From an uncultured Hormoscilla sp. (lineage in GTDB: Bacteria > Cyanobacteriota > Cyanobacteriia > Cyanobacteriales > Desertifilaceae): a DNA stretch of 64,000 nt. Each line of letters begins with the position of its first letter. Within the stretch, counting starts at the first letter, position 1. The notes beneath the pieces are model-generated. The model was not told where the DNA came from, ran no database searches, and saw only the letters and a program-made list of their open reading frames with translations. This document shows, piece by piece, positions 2,284 to 64,000 of this stretch. The DNA is taken from NCBI GenBank assembly GCA_963921275.4, contig OZ001293.3:2880001-2944000 (forward strand), read 5' to 3'. A program made the translations under genes and the position numbers.

Positions 2284-3276
2284 ATGGAATTTCTAACAAA
2301 TTTGGACAGAAAAAATCTTTGGAATCAACCGGTATACGCCCAGTTTCTGGCGGAAATTGACCCCTTTAGAGACTTTCAATATTTTCGGAAATATTTTGCT
2401 TATGATGGCCAGAATACCTTTTGGTCAAAACCTTGCCCAGAACCAAACCTGGAGGACGAGTTTTGGCAATTGGTACTCTCAAAACTAGCAGATGAAAAAT
2501 TGCAACTGGCTGCTACTCGCCTCGCTGCTGCTATTATCGCTACAGCCCCCGATCCTAGCAAGTTACTCTTTGTAGCTATTTTAAGAGGCGGTGTCCCGAT
2601 CGCAGATTGGCTTTGTCGCCTACTACCGGGATCGGTGGCGGTGGCCTTATCTCTATTTGTGGGCATAGGCATCGATCGAGTGGCTTTGCAAAACGTGCGA
2701 TCGCATTATCCCGATCGGCAAATCATCTTTGTTGACGGTTGGACTGGTAAAGGTGGCGTAGCCAGAGAATTATCAAAACTGGGACATTGTTCCGGAAAAA
2801 TCGGACCCCTAGCAGTTTTAATTGACCCTTGGGGCTGGGCAGATTTTTCTGGTGCAGTTGACGATCTATTCTGTCCCACAGCTTGTTTCACTGGCGTCGC
2901 TACTCTCGGCTTTTCTAGTGGCTTCTATGTAGACGATCGCCGTTTATTTGCCTCGTACCTATTTCCCGAAGCCTATTGTCGCCCCCAATTAGTTACAACC
3001 TGGCAGAACTCTTGCCCTCAATTGCCATCAACAACGCCACCAGAGAAGCAACGCTTTTGGTTAGAAACAGACTTGAGAATACATAGCAATGAAGTTTGCC
3101 GTGGCTTAATGAATGCCAATCCGGATACCCTCTATTTTGCCGACGATCGCATCTACGTTCGAGAACATTATAGCCTGATATTGGCTTTAGCCGAGCGGCG
3201 GCGTGTAAACATTGTCTATAATGCCAAGCATTTAGCAGATTACCGAACCCGCGTTGCCTGCTCCTTTCAGAAATGA
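2284..3276 (+). CDS. StiP-like (cysteine protease/PRTase-like) Ter-associated protein
   Basis: LRGGVP, GIGID, IIFVDGWTGKGG motifs. Confidence 0.75.
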   Translation: MEFLTNLDRKNLWNQPVYAQFLAEIDPFRDFQYFRKYFAYDGQNTFWSKPCPEPNLEDEFWQLVLSKLADEKLQLAATRLAAAIIATAPDPSKLLFVAILRGGVPIADWLCRLLPGSVAVALSLFVGIGIDRVALQNVRSHYPDRQIIFVDGWTGKGGVARELSKLGHCSGKIGPLAVLIDPWGWADFSGAVDDLFCPTACFTGVATLGFSSGFYVDDRRLFASYLFPEAYCRPQLVTTWQNSCPQLPSTTPPEKQRFWLETDLRIHSNEVCRGLMNANPDTLYFADDRIYVREHYSLILALAERRRVNIVYNAKHLADYRTRVACSFQK

Positions 3277-26065: not shown

Positions 26066-26248
26066 ATGACAATCCTGTTAGAAATCGAAGCGGCCATCAA
26101 ACAGTTGCCCGAACCGTTCCGGAAAAATCGGGATGTTCGCCAGTTGGCAGCATGGTTACAGACCTATTTAGACGAGCGGTGGGATCTGCAGATGCAGGAC
26201 GACGCCGAAGTAGACATCGCCGCTAACCAAGTGAGAGAGTTGCCTTAA
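26066..26248 (+). CDS. Small antitoxin-like protein with a 15-nt in-frame insertion; possibly internally deleted
   Basis: EIEAAIKQLP..WDLQM; insert 26114-26128. Confidence 0.55.
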   Translation: MTILLEIEAAIKQLPEPFRKNRDVRQLAAWLQTYLDERWDLQMQDDAEVDIAANQVRELP

Positions 26249-62734: not shown

Positions 62735-63991
62735 TCATCGGGGAAAAGTTGGCAAGTCAATTGCGGCCAGGGACTTAATCTTCTTGTGGGGACGGAGGGG
62801 ATAAACTAGAGGAGAGGGGGACTTTGTAGAGGAAAGCAGGGACAACGTCTCGGCATCCACCGTGCCGGAAAAATCGGAACCCCCCTCTGAGGCTTGCTCT
62901 TCGCTTTGGTGGCTTTCTTGCTGCTCAAAGATAGATGCAACGTCGGAAAGTGAGTCCTCTGGAGTTTGCTCATTCCCTATGCTTGAAGAGTTATCTACTG
63001 CTGCTACTGTCTCATCAGTCAAGTCCTCACCAACTTCAGAATACTCATCCTCTAATTGTTCCGAGACCGAAGCCATTACCGATAACTCATTTTCAGGGGA
63101 AGCGAGTTCCTCTGAGACTGCGGACTCTGATACCCCAAGGGTTTCTCTGGGTCGATCCTGCTGTGAGACGGGGGCGCGAACGCTGCGCGAAAAATCGACA
63201 GTAGGAGTATCGGCAGATATCTGCCAGTAGTCAGGCTCACCCCAAGCCTGCCCAGGTACTGCATCCGACTCTTCTGGATCGAGATATAATTCAAGTTCTG
63301 CTAATTCAGATGCTGCTGACCAGGGTTGAATTGCTGGCGCTTTCGGGACAACTCCCTGTACGATCGCTCTGGTATCTGTTTCCTGTTGAGTGCTCCGACC
63401 CACCGTTCCGGAAAAATTAGCCGGTTGTTCCGGACCCGTCATCTCCAGGCATTTGTCCAGGGCATTTTTGAATTGCAGGGTGTAGCGTTGCTGCCGGTAC
63501 AGACGCGATCGCAAATCCCGGCAAATCGTTTCCGCTTGGGAAAGCTTAGTTGTCTGTTCCTCGTAGCGTTGCTGAGTAAGAGCACAATCTCGTTCCAACT
63601 GGGCCACTTGTTGTTGGTTAGTTTCCAACTGCCCGCGGAGTGTTTCTATGAGAATTTGTTGGCGAACCGTTCCGGAAAAATCGGAAGTTTGCTGGCCAAG
63701 TTCCTTTTCCTGCTGCACCTGAGAGTGCTGTTTTTTCAAGCTATGCAGTTCTGCGGACTGCTCGGAGAGTTTGGCCTCTTGAGCTTGACAATGCTCCTGA
63801 TATAGCTGCAATTGCCTTTGAGCAACTGCCAGTTCTGATTCTAACTGCATTACCCGATCGATCAAATCCGTGTTTGACTCTACCCGTACTTCTGCCGATG
63901 TCTGGTCGGTGTCTCCGGAGTAGTGCGAGTAGCGCTCTCCGGAGACACCGAAGATGTCTACCGTTCCGGAAAAATCGGGGTTTTCGCGCAC
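62735..63991 (-). CDS. Cyanobacterial coiled-coil protein carrying six in-frame micro-insertions; 5' end may lie outside the window
   Basis: RQQILIETL, LERDCA, LRSRL.RQQR.TLQFK.AL.KCL; C-terminal SPSP..YP.RP.K..KSLAAIDLP.F. Confidence 0.8.
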   Translation of the reverse strand: MRENPDFSGTVDIFGVSGERYSHYSGDTDQTSAEVRVESNTDLIDRVMQLESELAVAQRQLQLYQEHCQAQEAKLSEQSAELHSLKKQHSQVQQEKELGQQTSDFSGTVRQQILIETLRGQLETNQQQVAQLERDCALTQQRYEEQTTKLSQAETICRDLRSRLYRQQRYTLQFKNALDKCLEMTGPEQPANFSGTVGRSTQQETDTRAIVQGVVPKAPAIQPWSAASELAELELYLDPEESDAVPGQAWGEPDYWQISADTPTVDFSRSVRAPVSQQDRPRETLGVSESAVSEELASPENELSVMASVSEQLEDEYSEVGEDLTDETVAAVDNSSSIGNEQTPEDSLSDVASIFEQQESHQSEEQASEGGSDFSGTVDAETLSLLSSTKSPSPLVYPLRPHKKIKSLAAIDLPTFPR

Positions 63992-64000
63992 ATCGCGCAG

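Follow-up and report, generated by a model that had tools for sequence, protein, structure and literature searches.

How does a single protein come to carry the same short peptide at five separate places? This question is raised by a gene at the end of a 64,000-nucleotide stretch of DNA from an uncultured Hormoscilla sp., for which a sequence-only reading had proposed that DFSGT-like protein repeats were produced by mobile DNA. The window, by which we mean this whole stretch, corresponds to G000:C1:2880001-2944000, and coordinates refer to it unless marked G000:C1. G000 is the genome that holds the window, G001-G005 and similar numbers are its relatives, P0001 is the focal protein, and other P numbers are its orthologues. 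The G000 chromosome (6.88 Mb, 47% G+C) carries 4738 copies of HIP1 (GCGATCGC) and the host is therefore a cyanobacterium; the closest protein relatives of the focal gene product carry the name Hormoscilla sp. Our analysis indicates that the DFSGT(V) repeats are very probably in-frame copies of a very small, site-specific insertion element. The 15-nt unit that encodes them is dispersed, is present or absent as an exact 15-nt block, sits at a target motif with no target duplication, is restricted as a repeat to one genus, occupies genes, and shows a frame bias within them.

The complete focal gene lies on the minus strand at 62735-64207, with its stop at 62735 and its ATG at window-equivalent position 64207, and encodes 490 residues (L001:2735-4207:-, P0001). 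The first 207 nt of its coding strand, at the 5′ end, fall beyond the end of the window; the start previously placed at 63991 was not borne out, as the gene runs on to 64207. The product is a conserved cyanobacterial coiled-coil protein whose C-terminal SPSPLVYPLRPHKKIKSLAAIDLPTFPR tail is invariant, and it matches no Pfam or NCBIfam family above cut-off. A repeat search found a ~21-nt direct repeat in five copies within the gene, at 62859, 63180, 63402, 63666, and 63960. The spacings between the copies are 321, 222, 264, and 294 nt, every one a multiple of 3, and the five copies therefore have a common orientation and phase, as the sequence-only reading had stated. Translation of the minus-strand open reading frame (ORF) gives DFSGT three times, NFSGT once, and DFSRS once, the same counts as in that reading, and the copy at 63666 does lie directly before RQQILIETL. 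The five 15-mers had been treated as one motif; all five are present, but the DFSRS copy belongs to a second family. The gene holds four copies of family A (TTTTTCCGGAACGGT, read DFSGTV) and one of family B (TTTTTCGCGCAGCGT, read FSRSV). For the 19-mer formed by the 4-nt target and the 15-mer, the window contains six matches at up to three mismatches, vs 0.03 expected, and none of 100 shuffles reaches six.

Comparison with orthologues shows that these units behave as insertions. When 16 orthologues are aligned, every motif stands opposite a 5-residue gap in the proteins from repeat-free genomes, and the residue preceding the gap is E or D. Among close relatives, P0003 has gaps at all sites and P0006 at all but one. 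The earlier proposal would be in difficulty if orthologues from element-free genomes carried DFSGT repeats; among the 120 homologues listed, 113 are without any motif; of the seven that carry one, six are close relatives and the last is a distant protein in which DFSRS occurs once. At the nucleotide level (a slash marks the insertion point), the site KLSE/Q reads TCC GAG CAG in G000 and G004 and TCC GA-TTTTTCCGGAACGGT-G CAG in G002 and G003. The site QTSD/R reads TCC GAT CGC in G004 and TCC GAA CGC in G001 and is filled in G000, and the site EYSE/V reads TCT GAA GTT in G000 and is filled in G002, G003, and G004. A metagenome contig, X5, has 28 substitutions over 1180 nt of the gene (~97.6% identical) and omits exactly 15 nt at 62859, 63179, 63402-9, and 63665, which are four of the five sites. 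A contig from an RNA-library run, X13, retains the unit at 63402, is empty at the 63666 site, as is X5, and carries an extra family A unit at another place in the opposite orientation; it provides weak evidence that units stay in transcripts, and DNA carry-over is possible.

We used 20 stretches of 20 kb from G002 (400 kb), aligned to G000, as a genome-wide empty-site test. These stretches contain 46 copies, and for 32 of them a G000 alignment spans the site. The site is filled in 16 of the 32, is a clean 15-nt gap in 11 and a near-clean one in two, and is unclear in three. The clean empty sites read YGA/R in 11 of 11 cases and CYGA in 10 of 11. In the reverse direction, three of 20 G000 copies are empty in G002. 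The insert starts and ends with T while its flanks are A and R, so the 15 nt cannot be shifted along the alignment, and there is therefore no target duplication. Together, the 5-residue gaps in orthologues, the exact 15-nt empty sites, and the genome-wide dispersal support the earlier claim that mobile DNA produced the protein repeat.

These comparisons also bear on whether the motif might spread as HIP1 or DNA-uptake sequences do, by point substitution together with biased repair, uptake, or selection as a DNA-binding site, and with no insertion at all. The genome is rich in HIP1, family A holds an 8-nt palindrome (TTCCGGAA) that could serve as such a binding site, and the element is far better conserved than its flanks. 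We nevertheless consider this explanation very unlikely, as it is contradicted by every informative comparison, each of which shows an indel of exactly 15 nt instead of successive substitutions. HIP1 itself, according to excerpts of one study (PMC13756078), spreads without indels and adds none to alignments, whereas the units described here are indels.

Across 15 sites that are filled in G000 and G002 alike, 1 of 225 element positions and 238 of 4249 flank positions (5.6%; Fisher p = 9e-5) differ, which makes the element sequence ~12 times less diverged than its flanks, although this contrast is inflated, as the G002 copies were picked as near-consensus. By our estimate, about six element differences would be expected even if only the G000 lineage had been allowed to change. 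The low divergence could be explained by constraint, by conversion between copies, or by repeated loss and re-insertion. Constraint or conversion would also suit a history in which the ancestor of the genus already had the units and the polymorphism mostly reflects precise deletion or allele replacement between strains, and not ongoing insertion. Two further observations in the focal gene agree with such a history. The X5 contig is empty at four sites simultaneously, and one site is homoplasious: in the protein tree, P0003 and P0006 fall outside (P0001,(P0002,P0004,P0005)) with support of 84/88, and the site QTSD/RQQ is filled in P0001, P0002, and P0004 and empty in P0005. However, no site is filled in orthologues from outside the genus, whose genomes are without the repeat, so that each copy must have been gained at some time, and both the series of zero, one, and six copies in mfd (see below) and the copies nested in other repeats indicate repeated gain. 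An ancestral origin with mostly losses is thus improbable, and we favor the reading that the units are inserted.

The units fall into three families with closely related ends. In an alignment of 212 family A copies on a 10-nt neutral anchor, information is high only over t-C-C/T-G-A, the 15 nt, and the following R, and is at background beyond; for families A and B alike, the information content reaches background within 1-4 nt of the unit edges. CCGA or CTGA forms the left flank of more than 83% of the 212 copies, and a purine follows the unit in 91%. Family A is exactly 15 nt with sharp edges, inserted after CYGA and before a purine. The 19-mer occurs 246 times in G000 at up to two mismatches, on both strands, and 135 of these copies are exact. 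Flank clustering groups the 238 copies of family A into 187 loci with independent flanks, 171 of them singletons. Family B, also 15 nt (TTTTTCGCGCAGCG followed by T or A), has 120 copies at 87 loci, and family C, of 24 nt, has 80 copies. All three families share the left junction CGA/TTTTTC (the first 6 nt) and the right end ...GT (the last 2 nt). Their lengths are all multiples of three, and families A and B are free of stop codons in all frames, so an insertion leaves the gene open. The T-run of family A is T5 in 185 of 187 copies, and variants of its length are therefore uninformative on frame selection. Family B often hits CGA/TCG, the core of HIP1; of its 120 copies, 48 restore GATC at the junction, 30 restore CGATCG, and three restore the full HIP1, and among the 238 copies of family A only 12 restore CGATCG.

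We looked for a longer parent element ending in a family A unit and found none among the largest flank clusters (14, 9, 8, 5, and 4 copies); similarity in these clusters extends on both sides of the unit, so family A rides inside bigger repeats there. Many copies of family C ride in a multi-copy transposase-like ORF, where they are read DFSGRPRTV, and much of the copy number of family C therefore comes from riding in a larger repeat. A transposase-like ORF without a Pfam match (L034:2885-3658, -) holds three to five family C units and has about ten paralogous loci, e.g. at G000:C1:434879, 830655, and 4351135. At L036 (G000:C1:5096032-5096655), an 89-nt unit is present in eight tandem copies, each with one family A unit beside a HIP1 site. 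A 15-nt difference within the family B copy of the G003 orthologue was considered as a further family and rejected, as it forms no repeat family in G000 (16 loose matches with no shared flanks). Rfam gave two sub-threshold matches at chance level only, and the plasmid collection gave no match. A literature search found no paper with the unit sequences or DFSGTV in the text searched, and a search on Hormoscilla repeats and mobile DNA found none concerning these repeats by title or start of abstract.

The families have a narrow distribution. The five genomes of the genus contain 233, 45, 187, 186, and 178 copies of the family A 17-mer at up to one mismatch. Outside the genus, two copies are found in one of 26 other relatives and none in the remaining 25, and the exact family A word occurs as one single copy in 400 further genomes of the phylum (156 genera). 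For family B, two genomes of the genus gave 97 and 51 copies, and three of 149 other genomes of the order gave single matches. Family A as a repeat is thus confined to one Hormoscilla-like genus.

To what extent do the units enter genes? Our gene set, based on long ORFs and codon usage, comprises 4493 genes and 57.7% of the chromosome. Family A lies in this set at 101 of 187 loci, vs ~62% of CCGAR target words (p = 0.03). Among randomly drawn carrier ORFs, 16 of 18 have Pfam domains, and such carriers include DnaE, PheT, Mg-chelatase H, an LpxA-like protein, a Ser/Thr kinase, and a polyketide synthase module. When element positions are compared with the best domain stretches, most of the sampled inserts lie in linkers or termini and about four within a domain envelope. 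Genic copies are read as DFSGTV in 49 cases, RFFRNG in 3, PIFPER in 4, TVPEKS in 30, RSGKIG in 7, and PFRKNR in 8, and the numbers expected from the target motif are, in the same order, 33, 10, 10.5, 20, 15, and 12 (p = 4.5e-5). The target codon context explains part of this frame bias, and selection on the peptide probably explains the rest. The excess of the DFSGTV frame (49 of 101 genic copies) is also what would be seen if DFSGTV were a functional peptide motif gained convergently under protein-level selection. We give this idea almost no credence: identity at the nucleotide level includes synonymous positions, with 135 exact copies among the 246 19-mers; the gene set does not include 86 of the 187 loci; and both orientations and all six frames of the unit occur across the genome, so its spread is driven at the DNA level and not by a selected peptide motif.

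The common orientation of the five copies in the focal gene had been ascribed to transcription-linked insertion or to selection. Genome-wide, 65 genic copies are sense and 49 antisense, near the 61 and 53 that target availability predicts, and there is therefore no transcription effect; this part of the proposal did not hold. The focal gene has 16 CYGAR words, of which 7 fall in frame as ...GAR codons, so that five insertions in a single phase are unusual but not extraordinary. Shared orientation and phase are better explained by the presence of the target on in-frame Ser-Glu/Asp codons (TCY GA/R) together with selection for two tolerated frames. Selection, the other half of the earlier proposal, would contribute through the tolerated frames.

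A case of self-targeting is seen in mfd, which was identified by NCBIfam on a 400-residue fragment. A variant of family B with CGA at its end forms its own target anew. In mfd, the site CTCGA/TCGC is empty in G001, G002, G003, and G005 (loci L043, L044, L046, and L047). In G004 (L045) it holds one family B unit, whose right junction regenerates a perfect HIP1, and in G000 it holds six tandem family B units, (DFSRS)x6, at CTCGA/TC (L035:585-675, G000:C1:4116585-4116675).

These observations are very probably accounted for as follows. Family A units go in with a single orientation, at the junction of the A in a C-Y-G-A target with the purine after it, and the target is not duplicated. Where the target falls on in-frame Ser-Glu/Asp codons (TCY GA/R), the acidic residue would become Asp and FSGTV would be added. 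Selection would then filter the copies to permissive sites and to the least disruptive frames. The element would be moved in trans by an enzyme encoded elsewhere. The signature to be explained is a fixed insert of 15 or 24 nt, in one orientation relative to an asymmetric 4-5-nt word, with no duplication, possible precise loss, re-targeting, and nesting.

IS200/IS605 elements, short sequences derived from them, and REP/REPIN sequences, which depend on HUH Y1 enzymes (RAYT in the latter), insert in one orientation, 3′ of a specific 4-5-nt word, with no duplication, and can be excised seamlessly. We tentatively prefer single-strand cutting and joining of this IS200/IS605-RAYT kind, acting in trans, because it is the known chemistry that inserts 3′ of a short word in one orientation with no duplication and allows precise exit; we hold it at well below even odds. 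Family A matches these systems in its oriented insertion 3′ of a short word without duplication. The subterminal hairpins of these systems are not matched by the 15-nt units; REPs are extragenic, whereas half of the units here are genic; and RAYT repeats flank their gene.

A second candidate is a templated patch, in which the DNA would be nicked after ...CYGA, the 3′ end would pair with a short RNA or DNA template, and a reverse transcriptase or polymerase would copy 15 nt before the nick is resealed, by analogy with telomerase or target-primed synthesis. Either C or T is accepted at one position of the target, which is what wobble pairing with a G in the template would allow; insert length does not vary (T5 in 185 of 187 family A copies), the target is not duplicated, and families A, B, and C are alike in their first 6 and last 2 nt. 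On the other hand, no template locus or linked reverse transcriptase turned up, no search having been aimed at either, and truncated copies, the usual by-product of such synthesis, were not seen. The tandem family B arrays in mfd are also explicable by simple re-insertion or slippage. Templated synthesis at a nick is, in our judgement, unlikely, and less favored than cut-and-join. The remaining probability falls to a mechanism not yet described, possibly the one behind the small dispersed repeats (SDRs) of Nostoc. It is conceivable, to about the same tentative degree as the cut-and-join chemistry, that the 15-nt units are the smallest site-specific mobile DNA yet seen and, lacking terminal repeats, target duplication, and a stable hairpin, are moved by machinery outside known transposition systems, possibly that of the Nostoc SDRs. 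If so, the activity of this machinery in the genus (4-5 gains vs 28 substitutions within a single 1.2-kb gene) would suffice to make it one of the main causes of change in protein length, reaching housekeeping proteins such as Mfd, DnaE, and PheT.

Several points weigh against insertion by an enzyme in trans, or limit what can be concluded. No enzyme is linked to the elements: matches to the Y1 (HUH) family PF01797 occur in 29 of 31 relatives, with two in G000, and do not track the element. The one Y1-like ORF that we examined, at G000:C1:241795, has no copy of family A, B, or C, or of the hairpin family H described below, within 5 kb, in contrast to the flanking repeats of RAYT genes. The two end hairpins required by IS200/IS605 elements do not fit in a 15-nt unit, and units A and B with their flanks show no significant DNA fold (z -0.75 to +0.68). 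No replication-strand pattern appears in 28 bins compared for GC skew, gene strand, and element strand, a comparison that has no power as the GC skew is flat. The site QTSD/RQQ would require one parallel gain or one precise loss on the protein tree, and the direction of change is in general inferred from outgroups. The gene set is crude and the coding fractions are approximate, the translation of the inserts is predicted, and the evidence for retention in RNA is the single X13 contig, which may contain DNA. We note separately that the Y1 (IS200-like) transposase-like ORF (G000:C1:241795-242139, ~206 residues) is followed by a tandem array of ~20 codons per unit, as judged by eye. A mini-hairpin in the units, drawn by eye as a 3-bp stem with a GNA loop (CCG-GAA-CGG in A and CGC-GCA-GCG in B), was considered and discarded, as it is not a predicted fold.

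How do the units compare with other very small repeats? The small dispersed repeats SDR1-8 of Nostoc and heterocystous cyanobacteria are said to have been described by Elhai et al. in 2008, reportedly with lengths of 21-27 nt. Like the A and B units, SDRs are, in the passages on them that we cite here, very short dispersed cyanobacterial repeats that behave as mobile and have no known enzyme, and the features that characterize them, namely high copy number, sharp edges, and presence or absence at orthologous sites, are borne out in families A and B. SDR5 is given in excerpts of a 2026 paper as 21 nt long and of unknown function (PMC13756078), whereas the units here are 15 nt. Passages of another paper place its insertion precisely where HIP1's third nucleotide meets the fourth (PMC4390886); family B hits CGA/TCG in 30 of 120 copies, and the insertion point of its CGA-ending variant can also be written GCG/ATCGC. 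HIP1 is a very abundant short word in G000, and its core is a preferred target of family B. As far as excerpts of a third paper state, no SDR-like repeat was found outside Nostocaceae (PMC5861425), whereas the units here are found in a non-heterocystous genus. Family A targets CYGA/R and not HIP1, about half of its loci are genic, and it is set beside the SDRs by description and not by sequence.

A more distant parallel is offered by the Rickettsia palindromic elements (RPEs), which an excerpted review describes as selfish repeats of ~150 bp found in frame in many unrelated protein-coding genes (PMC10969869). As portrayed there, RPEs add a conserved peptide without destroying the gene, as do the units here, and we regard the likeness as a functional analogy only: RPEs are ~150 bp, palindromic, and carried by an alphaproteobacterial parasite, whereas the units are 15 nt, add five residues, and have a defined target word. 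A miniature inverted-repeat transposable element (MITE) was also considered and rejected, as the unit is 15 nt (MITEs are ~50-500 bp) and has neither target duplication nor terminal inverted repeats. The A and B units are a smaller, heavily genic variant of very small mobile repeats, in a new lineage and with a well-defined target.

How repeats of ~20 nt can move has been asked ever since the Nostoc SDRs were described. The present genus is a cleaner system, with an exact 15-nt insert, a defined target word, and three sister families with a common junction. Its five genomes and several metagenomes give many pairs of filled and empty sites, and one variant makes tandem arrays by re-targeting itself. 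Judging from the predicted reading frames, selfish DNA would here be writing new 5-residue segments into ~100 proteins, at scale. The repeats are relevant to protein evolution, to the alignment and annotation of these genomes, and to strain typing of sponge-symbiont cyanobacteria. The features of the window are collected in Table 1.

Table 1 Positions of the focal gene, the inserted units, and associated repeats in the window
Feature	Position	Strand	Context	Presence or absence
Focal gene, in-window 3′ 1266 nt	62735..64000	-	490 codons in all	
Family A insert, one mismatch, (D)FSGTV, residues 445-450	62859..62873	-	target CCGA at 62874-62877	exact 15-nt gap in X5 contig; 5-residue gap in P0003, P0006, P0007
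Family B insert (TTTTTCGCGCAGCGT), (D)FSRSV	63180..63194	-	flank GTCGA/TCGC	exact 15-nt gap in X5 contig; missing from P0003 and P0006
Family A insert, (N)FSGTV	63402..63416	-	left flank GA mutated to AA	4+1+10 = 15 nt omitted in X5 contig; missing from P0003 and P0007
Family A insert, exact consensus, (D)FSGTV directly before conserved RQQILIETL	63666..63680	-	flank TTCCGA/TCGC	empty in G004, G001, X5, X13
Family H hairpin, 46 nt, read in frame as VSGERYSHYSGDT	63906..63951	-	perfect inverted repeat	
Composite insertion, in-window part	63908..64000	-	whole = 153 nt (51 codons)	unique to G000
Family A insert, exact consensus	63960..63974	-	nested within composite N-terminal insertion	
Family A copy, exact, read PFRKNR	26113..26127	-	in 60-residue ORF (26066-26248, +)	
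Family A copy, degenerate (2 mismatches), read CSGKIG	2786..2800	-	in StiP-family gene (2284-3276, +)	

The N-terminal part of the focal protein contains a composite insertion that is missing from every other orthologue of the alignment. It consists of a hairpin-type module (~14 copies), a nested family A copy, and a family H hairpin. The family A unit is nested near the 3′ arm of the hairpin-type module, and this arrangement recurs in the 14-copy flank cluster elsewhere in the genome. A hairpin had been reported in this region as part of the same set of insertions; it is real, with perfect arms (63906-63920 and 63937-63951, 15 nt, 100% complementary, 16 nt apart), but it belongs to a third repeat family, H, which is unrelated to families A and B. 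The DNA fold of the hairpin is -20.6 kcal/mol (z -6.5). Family H has 141 copies in G000:C1 at up to two mismatches, with a conserved 19-nt loop core; the stems vary among copies yet stay complementary, and some copies are nested in the loop of another. Read depth spikes at the hairpin in runs X4 and X5. RNA run X23 matches the hairpin repeat only and not the focal gene, and is uninformative on expression. Family H looks like REPs, yet at the focal gene it reads in frame within the ORF.

Other observations concern the rest of the assembly, the window, and the surroundings of the focal gene. Contig C3 of G000 (31,420 nt) has 17.6% G+C and no HIP1, vs 47% G+C in the chromosome, and may be foreign or organellar DNA. 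In the StiP-family protein of the window (Pfam E = 4e-21), the CSGKIG copy lies within the matched domain stretch, and DFSGAV is found further along. With only a few small ORFs between, the neighbor of the focal gene is a full-length dnaE (L059, G000:C1:2946178-2950662, -, overlapping L001:6175-7959), which encodes 1495 residues and has the domains PHP, pol III alpha, finger, HHH, and OB. Many micro-insertions dot the long extension at its C terminus, and they read SDDFSGTK, CAKNRG, IFRAAF, and LIFPER.

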